Shown here one piece after another: positions 2,260 through 52,078 of a stretch of DNA of 64,000 nt; the stretch's first letter is position 1, and each line of letters opens with the position of its first letter. Both the position numbers and the translations under genes were made by a program. Below the pieces are notes generated by a model. The model worked only from the letters and a program-made list of their open reading frames with translations, ran no database searches and was not told where the DNA came from. Source of the stretch: a virus. Where the stretch lies: IMG/VR virus record IMGVR_UViG_3300028829_005098, positions 51,416-115,415 of that record, one strand, 5' to 3'.

Positions 2260-2613
2260 TCAGTCTTCAAAGTATTCAATTACTTTTCCTGTTTTAATAT
2301 TATTTTTGCAGGCTTTTCGTTTATCACGATGTAGATGTGGTGCTTTATCAAGATACTCTGTGGTACAATGAAATATATAACCATCCACCACAGGACCTTC
2401 TGTTGTTTCTCCTTCACTATATACTCCGATAAATTTAAAGTCATCTTTTTCTTTTTTAACAAATTTGCTTGCAAGAGACTTTGCCCAATTTTCATTTCCT
2501 GCTTTTTTTGAAGAATAACTATATCTAGAATGATTTGGTGCTAGTTCAAGTCTCCAAGTTTCTCCAAGTTTTTCTTCTTGAATTAATTCATCTAATATTT
2601 TTTCAAAATTCAT
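2260..2613 (-). CDS. hypothetical protein
   Basis: 117-aa ORF coupled to its neighbours (ATGA overlap); N-terminus MNFEKILDELIQEE. Confidence 0.6.
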   Translation of the reverse strand: MNFEKILDELIQEEKLGETWRLELAPNHSRYSYSSKKAGNENWAKSLASKFVKKEKDDFKFIGVYSEGETTEGPVVDGYIFHCTTEYLDKAPHLHRDKRKACKNNIKTGKVIEYFED

Positions 2614-3653
2614 TTTTCACCCTTAAACTTTAATGAACGAATTTGGTGAAAGTATTTTACGATCTGATTCCTTGATAAATTCAGACTTTCTACCAATCTC
2701 GATAATACCGCAAGATTTCTTCGTTCGTTTAATTTAAATTTTCTAATTACATAAATAGACCTACTCAAATGTCTTTCTAAATCCATAGGAAGAACGACAT
2801 CTTCCATAGAAACTATATCTAATTCCTCATTCACACGATTTCGTTTATCACCACTCTTAGTCATTTTATCATGTGCCATCATCATTTGTATCCACTTTTT
2901 ACCAATTGGATTTCGTATGGGTTTTGCAACAAATCGTGCAGTTGCTTTTAAAACGTGTGGAACTAAATCTAGTCTTCCTGGTTTCTTTTTACTACGAGTA
3001 TCTTCAGAGTTATCTACAATAACAAAGTTTTTTCCAAATGAACCTTGAAACTTACCAAGATTTTTTTGTACATCGGTCCAAATATCTTTTACTATTTTTC
3101 TTGGAAGTTTTCTTTTACGCATTGCGTTTCTTTGTTGTGCAACTTCAAGTGTTGTGTTAACAAACACCATATAACAATCGTATCCAAGTTTTTCTAGTTC
3201 TTTCTTTTGCTTAGATATTTTGTTATAGTTATCACCAGTTCCATCAACAATAACACCAAGACGATTATTTTTAAACATTTCAAATTGTCTTAACATAATT
3301 TTCTTTGCACGGGAACGAATACTATTTGGATCACCACTTGTCACTTTGCTAAATGTTTCATCGTCCATTTTGGATAAATTTAAATCGTATCCTGCTTTCT
3401 TTAGAAGTATTTCAAACGCAGGATCACTATTAACTATCTTTAACCCACTTGGAGACAAATTAGTTGCTTCGGGTGGAAAATCAAATATTGTATCAACGGT
3501 AGCAGATTTACCAGATCCAGGACCTCCCGCTAAAAATACTGCTTTTAGAATACCAGGATCATACACACCCTCTACAAGTGTAAAATATCCTTTACGCAAT
3601 CCTGCTTTAATCAGGGTTTCTTTGACTTCTTGGTTTTTTTCGGAATCTTCCAT
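2610..3653 (-). CDS. P-loop kinase (polynucleotide kinase / zeta-toxin-like, AAA_33 type)
   Basis: FLAGGPGSGKS Walker A, NSD, IVDGT, lid LEVAQQRNAMRKR. Confidence 0.8.
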   Translation of the reverse strand: MEDSEKNQEVKETLIKAGLRKGYFTLVEGVYDPGILKAVFLAGGPGSGKSATVDTIFDFPPEATNLSPSGLKIVNSDPAFEILLKKAGYDLNLSKMDDETFSKVTSGDPNSIRSRAKKIMLRQFEMFKNNRLGVIVDGTGDNYNKISKQKKELEKLGYDCYMVFVNTTLEVAQQRNAMRKRKLPRKIVKDIWTDVQKNLGKFQGSFGKNFVIVDNSEDTRSKKKPGRLDLVPHVLKATARFVAKPIRNPIGKKWIQMMMAHDKMTKSGDKRNRVNEELDIVSMEDVVLPMDLERHLSRSIYVIRKFKLNERRNLAVLSRLVESLNLSRNQIVKYFHQIRSLKFKGEK

Positions 3654-3673
3654 AAATACAATTCAGGTACATA

Positions 3674-3681
3674 ATAAATAT
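3674..3681 (-). promoter_or_regulatory. putative late promoter motif ATATTTAT
   Basis: Recurrent coding-strand intergenic motif, about 20 nt upstream of the kinase start. Confidence 0.55.
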
Positions 3682-3696
3682 ATATCTAAATATGTT

Positions 3697-6297
3697 TTAT
3701 ACTCCGTATTTTATCTTACTAAAAGAACCTTCTTTTTGAATTTCTATAATCTCGTCCACCATATCTCTCATTACATCCAAATGACTGATGACCATTATGA
3801 ACTCAAACTGCCCCTTTAAATAGGTAAACAGATTAAATACACTACTTATGTTGTCTCCATCCAAAGAACCCCACCCTTCGTCAATAACAAGGAAATTAGA
3901 ACGTGGCAAACTACTTACATTAATAAGTGCTACTCGCATTGCGATACTGCTAATGAAACGTTCCATGCCACTACACATTTCAAGTGGCCAATGACGATCT
4001 TCATATGTAATCTTTGAGTAAATATGCTTTCCGTCCATCTCAAGTTGCATACCAAAGTCAACAATTTGAGAAAGAATATTATTAACTTCACTTTCAATGC
4101 TTGGAATTGTTTTGGAAATAAGTTCATATGAAATACCATCTCGTTTTACTGCATCAAGATATAGTTCGTATCCTCGTTTCTTTCTTTCATACCCCTTTGC
4201 CTCTTCAATAGATTCTAAAACATCTTTATGTTCTTTTTCTACAATTTTAACTTCACCAAACAAACCTTGTAATTTCATTGTTTCGTTTGATACTATTTCG
4301 TCTACTTTTTTTAATTTTTCTTTTACTAAATCTGCATCTACTTGTAGTTTTTTATTGAATAGAATAATATCTTTACACTCATAATATTCTTCAATGCTTT
4401 TATCGTTTAATAGTATATCTTTTTCAAGTGACTCAAGTATACTTGAAAGTGCAAGAATTTTAGAATCTACGTCACTTATTTCATACGACATTTGATTTAG
4501 TTTGGTTCTATCTTCAATTAGTTTTTTATGTTGTTCTTCTATATCACCAAATTTATCTAATGTTTTAGTAAGTTCAGTTTTAGTCTTAACTAGTTCATCG
4601 GCATCTGCTTTATCTTTATCAAGTTCTTTTTTAGTAATAGCCGCACTATCAATCAAATTCTTGGAATTCTTTACACAAAACTCACACTTAGGATCATATT
4701 CATGACTATCATAGTGTTTAAGTTTATCTAATTTAGCATTAACAGATGTTCTTAAAACTGCTAAGTCTTTATCTACTGACATTAGTTCTTCTTTTATTTT
4801 TAATGACTCGATAAAATTATCTTCTATATGTTTTCTTTTGCCCAACGACTTGGTTAGTTCAGACTTTTCGTTTGCTAATTGTTTTTTTCTGTCGGATTCT
4901 TTTTTTCTATTATCGTTTGCTATTTCAAGTCTATCTCTTAAATTTCTTTTATTATACTCAAGTTTATCTATATCTACATTTTCTTCATCAAACGAACAAT
5001 TTTTAAATTGAGAATTAATTTCAGCAAGACTATTATTTAATATTTTTTGTTCAGCAAGTGCTATATCAGTTTTTTCGTTTTGTTCGTTATATCTTAAATT
5101 AACATCGTTAAGTTTTTCTTGTACATTCAATAAAAGTTCATCGAAGTTTTCACGATTAAATCTTTTAAGTAAAGCATTTATTTCTTTTATATCTTCAGAT
5201 GCAGTTGAATGCAAATTATCAAATACATCAATACCCATAAATTGTGCAAGTAAATCTTTACGTTCACTTTGACTTTTATCTATAAAGATTGCATTGTTGT
5301 TTTGCAAACTTAATGCAGTTAAAACAAAATCTTCATACGAACCCACATGATCACGAATATTTGCATTTGTACCTGTTCGTTGTTCTCCGTTCAAAGATAC
5401 TTTTTGTCCAGTAGAATCGTTTTTCCAAAAATCTACTACCACAGTAACATCTCCATTCTTTTTAGTAGAAGCATTTCTTTCAATAAAGTAATCTACACCA
5501 GAAATCTCAAAGTTTAACTTACAATAAAAACTATCAGTCTGTGTATTTAGTACATGGGCAGCCTTGAATGCTCTGTCACACTTATCATATAAACAAAAAC
5601 TTAATGCACTCATTACACTACTTTTACCACTTGCATTTGAGGCAAATAAACCCATAACACTTTTCATATTTGAAAAGTCTACAATGTTTGAGTCTCCGTA
5701 ACTAAACATATTGCCGAATTCAAACTTTTTAGGTTTCCATATGCAATTTCTAAGAATTTCCTTTACAACAAGTTTATCATTTATTTCTTTGTTGATATCG
5801 AGTGCAGTTTTGATTTGTTCATCATCTACTACGAAATTTCTTCTAAGATAATCTTCTATTAAATCATTTTGAACATGAACCTTTGTAATATCACCAAAGT
5901 CAAATTTATTATCACGATCAAACTTTTTTGCTTCAGAAATAGCATCACACCTTGTTACATTTAAATCAGATATACTAGTTTTCTTACGAATCTCCGCAAG
6001 AATTTCTTTAGTTTCAGTTGCAGTTGTGTTATATACTTTTACACGAAGTCTTGCCTTTTTTGGCAATTGACTTAAATCACTTACACATTTACCATCACGA
6101 ACCTCTACCGTATAATAACCATAATCGTTATGCACTTCGTGGTGTGTGTGTTTTCTATTTTTAATATCCCAAAAAACATAACCATGACCCTTTGGTTTTT
6201 CTCCATGATTTTGTTGAATCATGCTACCCGAGTATACCACAACAGGTTTCTCACCGTTGTGTCTTTTTATTTTTACATATGTTTTTGGTTCATCCAT
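3697..6297 (-). CDS. sbcC: C-terminal part of Mre11/SbcD fused to Rad50/SbcC ATPase (gp47C-gp46-like)
   Basis: N-terminal YSGSMIQQNHGE..GHGYVFWD (SbcD C-half); Walker A SNASGKSS; coiled coil with CEFC zinc hook; signature CSGMER; Walker B IDEGWGSLD; H-loop ISH. Confidence 0.9.
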   Translation of the reverse strand: MDEPKTYVKIKRHNGEKPVVVYSGSMIQQNHGEKPKGHGYVFWDIKNRKHTHHEVHNDYGYYTVEVRDGKCVSDLSQLPKKARLRVKVYNTTATETKEILAEIRKKTSISDLNVTRCDAISEAKKFDRDNKFDFGDITKVHVQNDLIEDYLRRNFVVDDEQIKTALDINKEINDKLVVKEILRNCIWKPKKFEFGNMFSYGDSNIVDFSNMKSVMGLFASNASGKSSVMSALSFCLYDKCDRAFKAAHVLNTQTDSFYCKLNFEISGVDYFIERNASTKKNGDVTVVVDFWKNDSTGQKVSLNGEQRTGTNANIRDHVGSYEDFVLTALSLQNNNAIFIDKSQSERKDLLAQFMGIDVFDNLHSTASEDIKEINALLKRFNRENFDELLLNVQEKLNDVNLRYNEQNEKTDIALAEQKILNNSLAEINSQFKNCSFDEENVDIDKLEYNKRNLRDRLEIANDNRKKESDRKKQLANEKSELTKSLGKRKHIEDNFIESLKIKEELMSVDKDLAVLRTSVNAKLDKLKHYDSHEYDPKCEFCVKNSKNLIDSAAITKKELDKDKADADELVKTKTELTKTLDKFGDIEEQHKKLIEDRTKLNQMSYEISDVDSKILALSSILESLEKDILLNDKSIEEYYECKDIILFNKKLQVDADLVKEKLKKVDEIVSNETMKLQGLFGEVKIVEKEHKDVLESIEEAKGYERKKRGYELYLDAVKRDGISYELISKTIPSIESEVNNILSQIVDFGMQLEMDGKHIYSKITYEDRHWPLEMCSGMERFISSIAMRVALINVSSLPRSNFLVIDEGWGSLDGDNISSVFNLFTYLKGQFEFIMVISHLDVMRDMVDEIIEIQKEGSFSKIKYGV

Positions 6298-7219
6298 TGG
6301 TTATAATATTTAAAATTTCTTCTCCTAATTCTGAATCAGTTAAGTAAGGACTTAAGTGATGGTGACCTTGGAGTGGGAAATAGCAACATGGTCCTAAAAA
6401 AGGAGAACGATTCTCAGTTACATCGACGTTCTTACGATGTTGTTGCCAATGAATACCTTTTGGTCCGAACATTTGGTGTATGTAATCAGTAGATATAATA
6501 GTTGGTACTCTAAGTGCAGATGATATATTTGTAATACATCCCTCTGCACCAATTACATAATTGCAATTTTTAATCAACGATGCAGTGAATGTAAATTTGC
6601 TTGTGGAATTTATTGTAGGAAATCGTTTAGATATTTTATCTTCAAGACCAAGTGCAAATAAAATTATCTTAGGGTGCGTTTCCAAACAATTAATTATTTC
6701 AAATGTATCTCTTTTTCCAGAACCATATCCATTTCCTGTTTCACCACCCTCCGCACGATTATATTCTTCTTCTGTAAAAAGAAAACTTTTATTGTGCCAA
6801 TCCATTTGGTATCCAACTTTGATAACATCAGTTTGCCAATGATTTATAGCAACAAGCTCTTCCATACTTTTACTTACACCATAATCAAGTGCAGAAGAAG
6901 TAAAAATTTCAAAGGTATCGTCGAAAGCTTTTATATCACACATTCGTTGAAACTGAGATACTGCCGATTCGTATGGATTTAAGGTAGCACCATCTTCTAT
7001 TAAATTGTATACATGAGAATAATCGTTTCTTGAATCTTTGAAATGTACTCTATTGATATAAGGATTATTATTTAGCAATTCTATTGGTTGTAGATAATCA
7101 ATATCATAATCAACTTCACAATCTATATGTTCTTCTTTTAATTTTTTTGCTACACTACTTGCAAACAGAATATCACCAATATGAATGTTTCTACACTTAA
7201 TTAAAAATCTTTTAATCAT
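6290..7219 (-). CDS. GT9-like (heptosyltransferase-like, GT-B fold) glycosyltransferase nested between the SbcD halves
   Basis: HIGDILFASSVAKKLK, LLNNNPYINRV and LIKNCNYVIGAEGCITNISSALRVPTI match WaaC/WaaF-type patterns. ATG 7219 overlaps the sbcD stop (track start 7237). Confidence 0.7.
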   Translation of the reverse strand: MIKRFLIKCRNIHIGDILFASSVAKKLKEEHIDCEVDYDIDYLQPIELLNNNPYINRVHFKDSRNDYSHVYNLIEDGATLNPYESAVSQFQRMCDIKAFDDTFEIFTSSALDYGVSKSMEELVAINHWQTDVIKVGYQMDWHNKSFLFTEEEYNRAEGGETGNGYGSGKRDTFEIINCLETHPKIILFALGLEDKISKRFPTINSTSKFTFTASLIKNCNYVIGAEGCITNISSALRVPTIISTDYIHQMFGPKGIHWQQHRKNVDVTENRSPFLGPCCYFPLQGHHHLSPYLTDSELGEEILNIITNG

Positions 7220-7916
7220 TACAAACCTCCCATCCATCGAGTTTATATTTCTCTAGTGTGTTTTCCGACACAAATCTATGCTCAGTTTTGTATTCCTGTA
7301 ATACTTGGTATTTGTGAATATCTCCGAGCATTACAATATCATATCCATTGAATTGTGGTAATTCAACATCACCACCCATAACAACATACCCAACATCAGT
7401 CATACTTCGTTTTACTGCTCCGTGGTAAACTGCTATTTTAGTTGTTATACTCTCATCTGTAATATCAGAACCCACTATATAATTTTGTGGATCATCAAAT
7501 ATTCCAAATACACTAATTGCTATATCACCGATTTTATATACACCTGTATCTCTTAAATAATACAGATTAGGTTGGTCCATCATTCCAACTATGGGTGATA
7601 GAACATCCAACCTATCTGGATTATTTAGATTGCAATCATGATTGCCTGCTATAACTACAGTGGGGTGTAGTTTAGCACATTCTGATAAAAAAGTTGCTAT
7701 TTGTTTTATGAGTTCTGGACTCATTTCTGTTTTAGCATGAGCAATATCTCCACCAATAAAAATTAAGCAGTTATCGTAATTGTCTTCTTTAACTTGATTG
7801 TAAAAGTTTTCAAATACACCTGTATACTCGGAATGCCTTTTGATATTTCTAATATGAATATCTGCTAAATGGTAAACTTTATCAATATTTTTTATCTGTG
7901 AATCTAACTCAAGCAT
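7212..7916 (-). CDS. sbcD: N-terminal part of Mre11/SbcD metallophosphoesterase nuclease (gp47-like)
   Basis: HLADIH, GGDIAH, AGNHD, YHG and LGDIHK motifs; ends before the YxGS motif. Confidence 0.9.
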   Translation of the reverse strand: MLELDSQIKNIDKVYHLADIHIRNIKRHSEYTGVFENFYNQVKEDNYDNCLIFIGGDIAHAKTEMSPELIKQIATFLSECAKLHPTVVIAGNHDCNLNNPDRLDVLSPIVGMMDQPNLYYLRDTGVYKIGDIAISVFGIFDDPQNYIVGSDITDESITTKIAVYHGAVKRSMTDVGYVVMGGDVELPQFNGYDIVMLGDIHKYQVLQEYKTEHRFVSENTLEKYKLDGWEVCND

Positions 7917-8833
7917 AACCTCTGTTTCATTAATTCAGAAAAGTCTAGTTGTCCGCAACTTTTTATTTTCTTTGTAATTTGTTCAAACCCCAAATCGGCT
8001 GCATCTTGTTCTTCCACTTTAACTAACTTAACCGAAATCCCCTTGTTTAACAATTGCTCGGATATTTTAAGTGCATTTTTATATGCATCTTTATCAAGAA
8101 CTATTGTTACATTATTAACATGATGCTCAACCAATTTCATTTTAAGTTTATCAGGAATGTTTTTACCTAACATCGGTATAGCATTTCTACGAATTGCGAT
8201 TGCATCAAAAACTCCTTCGCACAATATAATTGGTTCAGAAAAATCAACTTGATTTTCAAACACAACCACATCTTTACTAACTTTTGGATTTTTATATCTT
8301 AAATAAGCATTTCCTATAAAATCACGAGCAATAAAGTAATTTAATTGATTATCCGAATCGTAAGACGGAACAATGATTCTATTTTCATATTCCCCTTCCT
8401 CACAATATCCTATATTATATCGTTCTATATCATAAGAAAATATATTTCTTTTTTTTAGATAATTTATAGCAATATTATGATTACGAGATTTGGTGGAAGA
8501 ATGTAATAAAGATTTAAACTCAAACGGAAGATGAATTTTGTTTTCTACTTCTTTTTCAAGTTTTATATTCTTTGGTAATTTTACTATTGTAGATAATTCT
8601 TGAAAATAATCAGGAGACACTTGCATTTTCTTGAATAAACTAAATATGCTTCTTCCTTTAGAATTGGTGTCAATCCAACTCTGCCATCTTTGAGTTGTTA
8701 AGTTAACTGCAAGTTTTGGTTTTCTGTGGTTGGAGAACGGGCACATAAACATAGCTTCGTCTTTGGAAACTATTTTACCAGTTCCCAAAACTTTTTGAAG
8801 TAAATTCAAAAGTTTTTGTTCAAATATGCCCAC
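7904..8833 (-). CDS. DNA primase (DnaG/TOPRIM type)
   Basis: CPF..H..PKL N-terminal domain, RIIVP, YKNP, CEGVFDAI, LDKDA; GTG start. Confidence 0.85.
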   Translation of the reverse strand: MGIFEQKLLNLLQKVLGTGKIVSKDEAMFMCPFSNHRKPKLAVNLTTQRWQSWIDTNSKGRSIFSLFKKMQVSPDYFQELSTIVKLPKNIKLEKEVENKIHLPFEFKSLLHSSTKSRNHNIAINYLKKRNIFSYDIERYNIGYCEEGEYENRIIVPSYDSDNQLNYFIARDFIGNAYLRYKNPKVSKDVVVFENQVDFSEPIILCEGVFDAIAIRRNAIPMLGKNIPDKLKMKLVEHHVNNVTIVLDKDAYKNALKISEQLLNKGISVKLVKVEEQDAADLGFEQITKKIKSCGQLDFSELMKQRLCLS

Positions 8834-8837
8834 TATA

Positions 8838-9362
8838 CTATTCAGAATACCAATGATACAATGATGCTACTACCGCATCAAGCATATCATAATTTTTTTT
8901 ATCATAATTTTTCTTAGTATTATAGTGAGTAAATTCAGATAAATCAAGCATATTATCTAAGTTGTTCTTAACAAATGTTTTGCTATCTACACCAGATTCT
9001 CTTGATTTTCCAAAAACTGCTTTTCGCATTGTAGACACATTAATATGCTCTACTTCTATATTATACATCTCTTCTACTACATAACTTATTATAGCATTAC
9101 ACTTTGCTAACTTTACAATAGTTTGTTGACTAGTTCTTCCTCCACCAAAACCACTTAACGAGTCTTCTACAATTATAAAGCAAGGTTGCAGTCGAGTATT
9201 TTTTAACTCATCTGCAACCTTGTGTGCTTTTTTCTTTATGGAGTTTTCTTTATTAACAGAAACAAATCCTGCGTGGATTATGTTTTCTTGGGAAGATGAA
9301 AAACAATAGCCTATTGTAGTTGAACTTATATCAAGTCCGAGAGATATTGGGTTATTTGACAT
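8838..9362 (-). CDS. RuvC-like Holliday junction resolvase
   Basis: LGLDISSTTIG, IIVED, RKAVFG and DMLDAVVA acidic motifs of the RNase H/RuvC fold. Confidence 0.75.
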   Translation of the reverse strand: MSNNPISLGLDISSTTIGYCFSSSQENIIHAGFVSVNKENSIKKKAHKVADELKNTRLQPCFIIVEDSLSGFGGGRTSQQTIVKLAKCNAIISYVVEEMYNIEVEHINVSTMRKAVFGKSRESGVDSKTFVKNNLDNMLDLSEFTHYNTKKNYDKKNYDMLDAVVASLYHWYSE

Positions 9363-9398: not shown

Positions 9399-9989
9399 TT
9401 ATTCAACACCTGAACGTGAGTTTCCGAGAACACTTGATCCGGATGACATTGCACCTGAACCTTGAGTTGCTACAAGTGACGTCATCCATTCTTGGTATCT
9501 TTCGGTATCAAAACTTGTTCCACCACCTGAACGATAAAAACTACCTTTAGCAGCTGCTTCAGGACTACCTCCTCCGTAATCACTATAAGTTGACATACCA
9601 CGACTTATTTTGGTTGTGAATCCTGATATTGTTGATGATCCACCAAAACTATCGTTCATAGCTGCATCTACATCAGAGTTACCTCTATAAATGCCCTGTT
9701 CAGATGATTTAATTGCCTGTCCATAACCAAAGAAGTTAACACCTTGACCACGACCTGTTGCATTTGCAAATGAATTAAGTTGTGGTGCAGCCCCCGCTAT
9801 TGGTGATGGCATAGATTCTCTGTAAAATGTTCCTTTGAGTTTTCCAGGTACTCCGTTTCCTCCGAAACGACCTTCAATACCACCACGACGTCTTGAAAAT
9901 CCACTTTGAAAGTCAACAAGACCTTTCCCACTGTCTAAACTATTTGCTTTAGTTGCTCCAGTTCCCATTCTTTTATCTTCGCCTGCCAT
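9399..9989 (-). CDS. Gly/Ser-rich hypothetical protein
   Basis: 196-aa ORF with a strong SD (AAGGAG) and an upstream ATATTTAT motif. Confidence 0.7.
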   Translation of the reverse strand: MAGEDKRMGTGATKANSLDSGKGLVDFQSGFSRRRGGIEGRFGGNGVPGKLKGTFYRESMPSPIAGAAPQLNSFANATGRGQGVNFFGYGQAIKSSEQGIYRGNSDVDAAMNDSFGGSSTISGFTTKISRGMSTYSDYGGGSPEAAAKGSFYRSGGGTSFDTERYQEWMTSLVATQGSGAMSSGSSVLGNSRSGVE

Positions 9990-51382: not shown

Positions 51383-52078
51383 ATGAGTTATTACAGAGAT
51401 TATCTTCGAAGAATGGTTGGTGGTGTTCGTGCAGGTAACAAACGACTACTAAAACCAGGTCAAATATGTACCTTTATGTACAATAACTCAACAATTGATG
51501 AGTCTATATCAAGACGAAAGTTTTACAGAATCATATTTGTATTAAATACATGGAAAGATACTAGAGGATTAAAACTTCACGCATTAAGTCTTGAGAATAT
51601 TCCTTGGACACGTTTTCGTGAATTTATTAAACGAATACTCGTTACGGATACACTTTCACTATTAAAAAGACGATATGAAATAAAAAGTCCAATCAATGAA
51701 TTAATCAACCGACCTCGTCCATTCTATGAATCTCATGTCAAGAAATTATTAAGTTTTGATTGTTATAGGACATACACATTAACAGAGATTAAAAATTGCA
51801 GAGTTGGATACCTTAATTTCTCATCTATGTTTTCTGATTATCAAAAAAAGGACACAATTATACGAAAAACCGATAATATATCCGATATAAAAATGGAACG
51901 TTCGGTTGTTGAGAGAAATTTAAATTTAAATTTATCAAAAATAAATGACAAGACATTTCGTTCAGCCATTATAGACAGATTTGGTAGTGTTGATAATTTC
52001 CTACAAGTATATAAAGATCTTGAAGAATTCATAAATGGAGTTGAAAATAAAGAGCAAACTGATAAGTTTAGATTATGA
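51383..52078 (+). CDS. hypothetical protein, weakly reminiscent of T4 gp2-type DNA end protectors
   Basis: PGQICTFMY..IIFVL..LHALSL..CYRTY pattern; weak. Confidence 0.4.
   Translation: MSYYRDYLRRMVGGVRAGNKRLLKPGQICTFMYNNSTIDESISRRKFYRIIFVLNTWKDTRGLKLHALSLENIPWTRFREFIKRILVTDTLSLLKRRYEIKSPINELINRPRPFYESHVKKLLSFDCYRTYTLTEIKNCRVGYLNFSSMFSDYQKKDTIIRKTDNISDIKMERSVVERNLNLNLSKINDKTFRSAIIDRFGSVDNFLQVYKDLEEFINGVENKEQTDKFRL

Follow-up and report, generated by a model that had tools for sequence, protein, structure and literature searches.

Two studies of broken phage genes describe the closest counterparts of the locus reported here. Dassa et al. (2009, Nucleic Acids Research 37:2560; PMC2677866) reported 26 "fractured genes" in which split inteins accompany a free-standing endonuclease, as well as one locus from the Lake Gatun Global Ocean Sampling (GOS) data in which SbcD-like halves flank a Vsr-like open reading frame (ORF) without an intein, the halves being lengthened at the break by 25 C-terminal and 9 N-terminal residues. 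Crona et al. (2010, Nucleic Acids Research 39:1381; PMC3045599) found that the oppositely charged tails resulting from mobE insertion in nrdA of phage Aeh1 are essential, and proposed that such tails are protein-interaction modules and a general antidote to fragmentation that works without RNA or protein splicing. We analyzed a 64,000-nt stretch of viral DNA (hereafter the window; positions 51,416–115,415 of the IMG/VR record IMGVR_UViG_3300028829_005098), in which a gene for an Mre11/SbcD nuclease is divided inside its catalytic domain and a glycosyltransferase (GT)-like gene lies between the halves. Probably, and with good confidence on our part, a single-chain Mre11–Rad50 gene of a large marine phage was fractured by a mobile cassette whose endonuclease was later replaced by the glycosyltransferase gene.

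The window locus belongs to the kind of fractured gene described in these two papers. With the Lake Gatun SbcD-like locus it shares a break between consecutive conserved motifs, added residues absent from intact homologues, the lack of an intein, and a downstream ORF whose start overlaps the end of the inserted gene; most of the relatives found here fit that locus as described in the paper, its Vsr-like endonuclease included. The window differs in having no endonuclease but a GT-B glycosyltransferase fixed across a marine clade, and in its host gene, a single-chain Mre11–Rad50 with a downstream half of 866 aa. The 2009 paper does not report conservation of the added peptides (here the tail of the upstream half and the leader of the downstream half), empty, remnant or re-fused states, or an interleaved phylogeny. 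The split-intein fractured genes of the same paper have the same half-gene/endonuclease/half-gene layout, Vsr-like family, phage origin and DNA-metabolism targets, but they use trans-splicing, for which the flanking peptides of the present family are far too short and lack the nucleophile and the H-N/+1 residues.

In the NrdA-a/NrdA-b pair of Aeromonas phage Aeh1, a free-standing homing endonuclease (mobE) likewise fragments the gene of an essential enzyme, and the tails arose with the insertion. The host enzyme is a different one, the charge polarity is reversed (the upstream tail of Aeh1 is basic), and the Aeh1 tails are needed for dimerization of the heterodimers, not for joining the halves. 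Their function was demonstrated, whereas for the SbcD family we infer it; Aeh1 is also one phage, whereas here one homologous tail–leader pair is common to a large family of alleles.

The phage family has the phosphoesterase motifs, capping domain, Rad50 ABC head, coiled coil and CxxC hook in common with E. coli SbcCD, T4 gp47/gp46 and the archaeal and eukaryotic Mre11–Rad50 nucleases. Unlike these two-subunit enzymes it forms one polypeptide, and in the window this chain is divided again within the nuclease domain, not at the Mre11/Rad50 boundary. Four points are added over the published cases: the single-chain host, the glycosyltransferase replacement fixed in a large marine clade, one shared tail–leader pair, and a visible series of invasion, decay, re-fusion and re-use. 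A literature search in a limited library found no paper describing them.

Anatomy of the Locus

Three overlapping, co-directional minus-strand ORFs are present, here called the N piece, the cargo gene and the C piece (3697–6297, minus strand, 866 aa). Their features are as follows.

7212–7916, minus strand: N piece, 234 aa, with Mre11/SbcD phosphoesterase motifs I–V and ending in the tail (profiles and motifs)
7215–7289, minus strand: C-terminal tail of the N piece, 25 aa, residues 210–234, absent from intact homologues (alignments)
7226–7231, minus strand: GGGAGG, a Shine–Dalgarno-like hexamer within the tail G-W-E codons, 6 nt upstream of the cargo ATG (sequence reading)
7212–7219, minus strand: junction 1, 8-nt overlap ATGATTAA, cargo start over N-piece stop (sequence reading)
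6290–7219, minus strand: cargo gene, 309 aa, GT-B fold, GT9-like by structure (AlphaFold2, AF2, and Foldseek)
6290–6297, minus strand: junction 2, 8-nt overlap ATGGATGA, C-piece start over cargo stop (sequence reading)
6250–6297, minus strand: leader of the C piece, 16 aa, basic in its core (Y-V-K-I-K-R type) and missing from intact homologues
5728–6249, minus strand: Mre11 remainder, C-piece residues 17 to ~190, comprising the YSGS strand that follows motif V, the capping domain and helices leading up to the Rad50 head
3697–5727, minus strand: Rad50/SbcC ATPase (PHROG 77, SMC_N, motifs)
5617–5637, minus strand: Walker A of Rad50
4675–4686, minus strand: CxxC zinc hook of Rad50
3955–3972, minus strand: signature motif of Rad50
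3868–3888, minus strand: Walker B/D-loop of Rad50

The N piece is 39% identical to residues 10–221 of an intact protein of Microcystis phage Mel-JY01, matches the Metallophos profile over its full length (E = 6.2e-08) and also PHROG 100, "SbcD-like subunit" (E = 1.1e-13). All five metal motifs are intact: I, ADIH (residues 18–21); II, GGDIAH (55–60); III, GNHD (91–94); IV, YHG (164–166); and V, GDIH (198–201). Another 33 residues follow motif V, and intact homologues lack any equivalent of the final 25. The C piece opens with the leader, continues with the strand KPVVVYSGS and the capping region, and ends in a full Rad50/SbcC. A family profile aligns its strand to the YPGSL strand just after GHIH in Thermotoga Mre11 3qg5, so the YSGS segment does belong to Mre11, as an earlier note made from the letters of the window had claimed. 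The Mre11/Rad50 boundary at about residue 190 was set by the start of the SMC_N and PHROG 77 matches (the latter with E = 1.1e-41), and beyond it the C piece has the Walker A, signature, Walker B/D-loop and CxxC hook of a Rad50/SbcC ABC ATPase. The post-motif-V strand and capping domain, contiguous with the catalytic core in Mre11, are here on the other polypeptide; the Mre11 fold would therefore be complete only if the two chains assemble.

Pfam, PHROG and Rfam scans of the window found no intein, endonuclease or intron signal, for intein and endonuclease in agreement with the earlier note. Its description of a fractured SbcD gene with a GT9-like gene between the halves, 8-nt overlaps and AATG at both junctions also held when coordinates, profiles and motifs were checked.

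A Single-Chain Mre11–Rad50 Ancestor

In Mel-JY01, one protein of 1066 aa is colinear with both window pieces, with 37% identity to the C piece, and the loop between motif V and Y-P-G-S has only ~10 residues. A locus scan of IMG/VR with the C-piece alignment returned 523 relatives, most of the 80 kept being single ORFs of ~1045–1090 aa, and a second scan seeded with N pieces added 80 further loci, nearly all intact. Altogether, ~145 fetched loci are intact single ORFs of this length with a loop of 23–33 aa, the counts of split and intact loci being biased by the fetching route. A close-relative search of IMG/VR with the N piece alone gave no matches; the relatives were found by alignment- and motif-based scans.

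The profile of the N-terminal 420 residues of the family crosses the break, with GDIH...Y-A-G-S-L-I-Q-Q-N-H-G-E matching GHIH...Y-P-G-S-L-I-R-I-D-F-G-E-E of Thermotoga Mre11, and the AF2 model of these 420 aa is closest to the Mre11/SbcD structures 3tho, 7dog, 1ii7 and 6s6v. Judged from these alignments, the ancestral gene is one single-chain Mre11–Rad50 that was cut again inside the nuclease domain in the window. The fusion of the Mre11 remainder to Rad50, which the earlier note had mentioned without this background, is thus not new. A literature search, again in a limited library, found no description of a natural phage Mre11–Rad50 fusion and no relevant work on Mel-JY01.

One intact member (L070:4366–8532) has a frame of 1388 aa, ~320 aa longer at the N-terminus than the others, which could be a further fusion or read-through from the upstream gene. 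Another, otherwise intact (L035, ~3396–3442), has a frame change in the N-terminal domain, away from the fracture site, which is a frameshift or a sequencing error.

The Same Fracture in Other Phages

Around an unrelated middle gene of 305 aa, the uncultured phage LR756508 (484 kb) repeats the three-ORF layout, and its tail and leader align with those of the window. The break recurs in many aquatic phages, lying in each case in the loop behind motif V and accompanied by a homologous acidic tail and basic leader. The same fracture with a homologous tail is carried by L002 and more than 40 metagenome or IMG/VR loci. A protein search at N-piece length gave ~50 clusters of exactly 234 aa, which make up the window clade, and dozens of stand-alone N pieces of 219–253 aa with 44–56% identity, many on contigs of 25–325 kb (P0061–P0117, mostly known as proteins, apart from their genomic context). 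All N pieces of both groups show the tail pattern E-x5-E-x2-[LIV]-x2-Y-x3-G-W. A degenerate DNA pattern for the tail collected 32 IMG/VR and 32 metagenome stretches, from which the false positives L199 and L211 were dropped.

The mean net charge of the tail across the tail-motif loci is −5.8. The leaders are short and rich in lysine and arginine, of the K-I-K-I-K-R-x-K-P type, with a charge of +4 to +7 outside the window clade. As in Aeh1 NrdA, the extensions are absent from intact homologues and oppositely charged, strongly across the family but weakly within the window clade, and relatives have an unbroken host gene (the ~145 intact loci). The tail–endonuclease–leader fracture was also seen in short, unfused SbcD genes with a downstream half of ~80 aa (L309, L311); the cassette is therefore not confined to single-chain Mre11–Rad50 hosts.

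The three-gene arrangement of the window itself recurs in at least 38 independent IMG/VR contigs, and this bears on whether mis-assembly or a chimera created one or both junctions, a danger the earlier note had named. The record is a metagenome-derived contig, which lends the idea some substance. It has next to no chance of being correct, however: at least 38 contigs, assembled independently from many samples and at 48–86% identity, repeat the gene order exactly, overlapping junctions included, and the arrangement is hence no assembly artefact.

Occupants of the Gap, Decay and Re-Fusion

Most occupants of the gap belong to one family, in which an N-terminal Zn-ribbon/NUMOD3 is combined with one of three nuclease domains: Vsr/DUF559-like, HNH or TnsA-like PD-(D/E)xK. 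PHROG labels the gap proteins homing or HNH endonucleases, and they lie between the halves in L002, L197, L200, L202, L204, L206, L209, L213, L218, L220–L222 and L301–L311. A homing endonuclease between the halves, as in Aeh1 NrdA, is thus missing from the window and present in its relatives. This overturns the view of the earlier note that the locus is an exception to the endonuclease rule for split phage genes: the same fracture in relatives holds a homing endonuclease, which was replaced in the window clade.

The three nuclease domains share one insertion site and are unrelated to one another (L221, L209 and L206 versus L220, L204 and L222 versus L002:6671–7588 and L197), which suggests that catalytic domains were swapped onto a constant targeting module. 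Full-length members of the Vsr-like type in IMG/VR sit in the SbcD fracture, and the bare nuclease domain occurs in many other places; this locus scan used a narrow alignment (A9), a wider one (A8) being too divergent.

Other states of the gap were also found.

L196:2382–3173, minus strand: N6/N4 DNA methyltransferase (Pfam, E = 1.8e-31), in a freshwater relative
L193, L210: ORFs without identification
L194, L195, L203, L214, L219: shortened endonuclease remnants
L171, L208, L215, L205: essentially nothing, with gaps of −14, 2, 9 and 51 nt, respectively

The methyltransferase is a second example of cargo other than an endonuclease, and the empty and remnant gaps show that the fracture is independent of the present cargo. 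Two proposals of the earlier note, that the break acts as a cargo slot and that the split may predate the insertion, fit these findings: different genes occupy the slot in different phages, and split alleles with essentially empty gaps exist. The fused, split-empty and split-with-cargo forms that it had envisaged among homologous loci all occur. The L193 ORF (4195–5973, ~592 aa up to the end of the contig) is 95% identical to the N-terminus of the L200 endonuclease over its first 58 residues, and the L210 slot holds an ORF of ~105 aa.

One clade displays all stages of decay. L222 and L204 have an intact HNH endonuclease; L203, L214 and L219 keep the last ~150 nt as a spacer, which in L203/L214 is the 3′ end of the L222 HNH gene. 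L217 corresponds to a locus of the L203/L214/L219 type minus a clean 154 nt between two GAAGAAAT repeats (microhomology), a deletion that takes out the stop, the spacer and the start and joins the tail to the leader in frame. Since L217 is nested among split alleles and is the sole intact gene with the insert among ~146 intact loci, its re-fusion is secondary, which argues against the insert being an old host domain.

Phylogeny and Probable Mobility of the Cassette

A tree of the N-terminal domain (108 representatives, tail columns left out, unrooted) has split, tail-bearing alleles and intact, tail-less alleles thoroughly interleaved, with at least 21 state changes, 9–10 of them forced by well-supported branches. 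Forcing all tail-bearers into one clade gave a log-likelihood difference (ΔlnL) of 860 and was rejected by the approximately unbiased (AU) test (p = 0.002). The window clade is monophyletic and entirely split. Such interleaving points to a mobile cassette. In near-identical pairs whose only difference is their state (L095/P0073, L212/L042, L205/L020), the entire loop that separates the G-D-I-H-K-R-Q codons from the Y-x-G-S-L-I-Q-Q codons has been exchanged. No other blocks of the gene are as conserved as these two, and homing-type gene conversion would be expected to produce such an exchange.

These results bear on an alternative in which one SbcDC subfamily ancestrally carried the tail–leader as a loop insertion (a mini-domain of the host protein), and genes were inserted repeatedly at the exposed hairpin of this insertion. 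The tail and leader are indeed contiguous in the single ORF of L217 and are modelled there as a compact strand-helix-hairpin, and split alleles have Q-x-L-Q-E-Y (left side) and K-P (right side) in common with some intact loops. We nevertheless regard this alternative as unlikely: L217 is a microhomology deletion of a split allele, one in which an endonuclease remnant is still present, no other intact gene has the insert, the tail-bearers are not one clade, and the near-identical host genes of the three pairs differ by the whole segment.

Structure and Selection at the Break

The AF2 model of L217, made from an alignment without a Mel-JY01 row, has a mean predicted local distance difference test (pLDDT) score of 82.5 overall and 70–88 over the insert. 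Its tail region is made up of β196–200, α203–211 and β215–218, and its leader region of β221–225, which leads into the host strand β228–231 (Y-P-G-S); the natural break point is the turn of the 215–218/221–225 hairpin. The window segments T-E-H-R-F, E-N-T-L-E-K-Y-K-L, E-V-C-N and V-K-I-K-R align onto strand, helix, strand and strand of L217, respectively. The modelled hairpin is consistent with the earlier note's suggestion that the two extra peptides form a split clasp: conservation, purifying selection and the hairpin strands of the re-fused protein all fit it, at the level of a model.

The ratio of nonsynonymous to synonymous substitution rates (dN/dS) across ~30 distinct window-clade sequences was 0.14 in the tail, 0.15 in the leader core and 0.09–0.10 in neighboring catalytic-core codons, approximate values, with dS saturated (>1) and some tail positions fixed by the collection pattern. 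The tail and leader are thus under purifying, protein-level selection, which is unexpected for intron sequence or an untranslated spacer.

The same estimates speak to the possibility that the split nuclease is inactivated, the N piece being a decaying remnant and the C piece either Rad50-only or paired with another nuclease. The break does lie within the catalytic domain. Inactivation is nonetheless very unlikely, with all five metal motifs intact, a dN/dS of ~0.10 in the N-terminal core, N pieces of exactly 234 aa in ~50 clusters, and no second metallophosphoesterase in the 115-kb record (~58% complete), in which the N piece is the only one.

Introns, inteins and the translational bypass of T4 gene 60 are the classical fixes for interrupted phage genes, and one of them (a group I/II intron, a non-canonical split intein or bypass) might rejoin the halves covalently or at the RNA level into one chain. 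Endonucleases related to the gap occupants occur in split-intein fractured genes and group I introns (PMC2677866), and the window-clade leader has H-N just before the host sequence resumes. Rejoining is still extremely improbable. In addition to the protein-level constraint on the tail and leader, no Rfam intron family matched positions 3500–8200 even at E ≤ 1, and the gaps of −14 to 51 nt in some split alleles are too short for an intron. The tail and leader together have ~40 aa, as against at least ~130 aa for a HINT fold, and the first tail residue varies (K, Q, S, N, E), leaving no conserved Cys/Ser/Thr nucleophile. The H-N is confined to the window clade and followed by G, K, A, Q, T, P or S, with no conserved +1 Cys/Ser/Thr; being clade-specific and without a +1 nucleophile, it was rejected as a sign of splicing. 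Finally, the 930-nt insert is a conserved intact ORF in 38/38 loci, which counts against bypass too.

Junctions, Possible Coupling and the Glycosyltransferase-like Gene

The true start of the cargo gene was placed at the ATG at 7219 because its homologues begin M-x-K-I-L-I-K-C. Fractured genes that bear an endonuclease have been described with an overlap like that at junction 2 (Dassa et al. 2009, PMC2677866). The GGGAGG hexamer in the tail codons may act as the Shine–Dalgarno sequence of the cargo gene; the C piece is without such a site, and its start codon lies inside the cargo stop. No terminator-like site was found on the minus strand between 3400 and 9500, and a promoter scan of the region gave counts equal to chance. 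Coupled expression of the three ORFs from one transcript is plausible on this reading of the sequence.

The AF2 model of the cargo protein (pLDDT 88.5) has a GT-B fold of two Rossmann domains, with 3tov (7.7e-10), 1psw (1.6e-07), 2h1f (5.4e-07) and also 4rb4 as the best Foldseek matches; the nearest structures are the GT9 heptosyltransferases WaaF, WaaC and TibC. By fold the model is thus closest to GT9, whereas the sequence does not match Pfam Glyco_transf_9: identity to WaaC, WaaF, TibC and 3tov is ~10%, there was no Pfam or PHROG match, and no Pfam GT family was matched even at E ≤ 1. Pfam, PHROG and structure gave no nuclease signal, and tblastn against isolate phages gave no match.

All 187 cargo homologues are unnamed. 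Those in IMG/VR with at least 48% identity lie between an N and a C piece without exception (38/38), and those at 29–39% identity are all free-standing (37/37), SbcD and Rad50 being absent from the surrounding 3.5 kb. In the simplest history, a glycosyltransferase gene from a phage glycan cluster was captured once, at the base of the window clade, by a gene that was already fractured. One free-standing homologue (L260:88–7796) lies in a co-directional cluster with GT1, GT2, GT7-like, FabH-like, hexapeptide acyltransferase and PhyH dioxygenase genes, which looks like a virus-encoded glycan or lipid-sugar pathway.

Proposed History of the Cassette

The preferred account, a mobile cassette whose endonuclease gave way to a glycosyltransferase, would run as follows. 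The break lies in the hairpin loop that connects motif V of the phosphoesterase to the following β-strand. The full cassette would consist, in order, of ~25 acidic-tail codons, a stop, a free-standing homing endonuclease gene, a start codon overlapping the endonuclease stop, and ~10–16 basic-leader codons. With its boundaries in two highly conserved blocks of catalytic-motif codons, it would spread among SbcD and SbcDC alleles by homing-type gene conversion and afterwards decay by deletion. In the ancestor of the window clade, the endonuclease would have been cleanly replaced by a GT-B gene recruited from the glycan-cluster family, the tail, the leader and both overlapping stop/start junctions being retained. 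The halves would be translated separately from one transcript, the cargo gene via the Shine–Dalgarno sequence within the tail codons and the C piece via stop/start coupling, and would then reassemble non-covalently. Tail (strand-helix-strand) and leader (strand) would complete a small β-hairpin mini-domain and restore the phosphoesterase β-sandwich. Of these steps, we infer non-covalent assembly, homing activity, co-translation and nuclease activity of the split enzyme.

Several points weigh against this account. The mini-domain rests on one AF2 model, no other aligned sequences covering the insert, and the dN/dS values are rough, as stated above. In the window clade the leader, with a net charge of 0 to +3, is weakly basic and the tail, at −1 to −8, mildly acidic, so charge complementarity is weaker there than elsewhere. 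An unrooted tree cannot separate gain by homing from repeated loss, and the nucleotide profiles of L205/L020 and L212/L042 (~80% identity) are too noisy for co-conversion tracts.

A more specific proposal, to which we give even odds, is that the acidic tail and basic leader are the portable two-piece clasp of the homing cassette and that, after loss of the endonuclease, the clasped fracture persists as a heritable, translationally coupled expression slot refilled with useful genes. The glycosyltransferase of the window clade and the DNA methylase of L196 would then be examples of a refilled slot, and introns and inteins would be joined by the clasp as a third means by which a selfish element can sit in an essential gene without harm. 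If a tail–leader pair of ~40 residues suffices to hold a split enzyme together, it would also be a compact natural split-protein adaptor.

Through these loci, two published single-locus cases become a populated natural series (intact, invaded, three endonuclease types, remnants, empty, re-fused and re-used), which allows comparative and bench tests of how a gene-fracturing homing element passes through its life cycle and of what its tail peptides do. The series also shows a route by which scars left by selfish elements turn into entry sites for accessory genes within phage replication modules. Current annotation, with a short "SbcD", a hypothetical protein and an "AAA/SbcC", hides both the single-chain Mre11–Rad50 and its fracture.

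Source Record and Neighboring Genes

The source record is an IMG/VR contig of 115,415 nt, ~58% complete, whose primase is closest to those of LR756508, the Flavobacterium "immuto" phages and Mel-JY01. Around the locus, all on the minus strand, are genes for a Zeta-toxin/PNK-like P-loop kinase (2610–3653), a DnaG-type primase that overlaps the N-piece start (7904–8833) and a RuvC-like resolvase (8838–9362), which places the fracture in a replication/recombination module. Further along the same strand, a glycine/serine-rich ORF of 196 aa (9399–9989) lies in a local GC peak, 0.38–0.41 versus ~0.30 around it.

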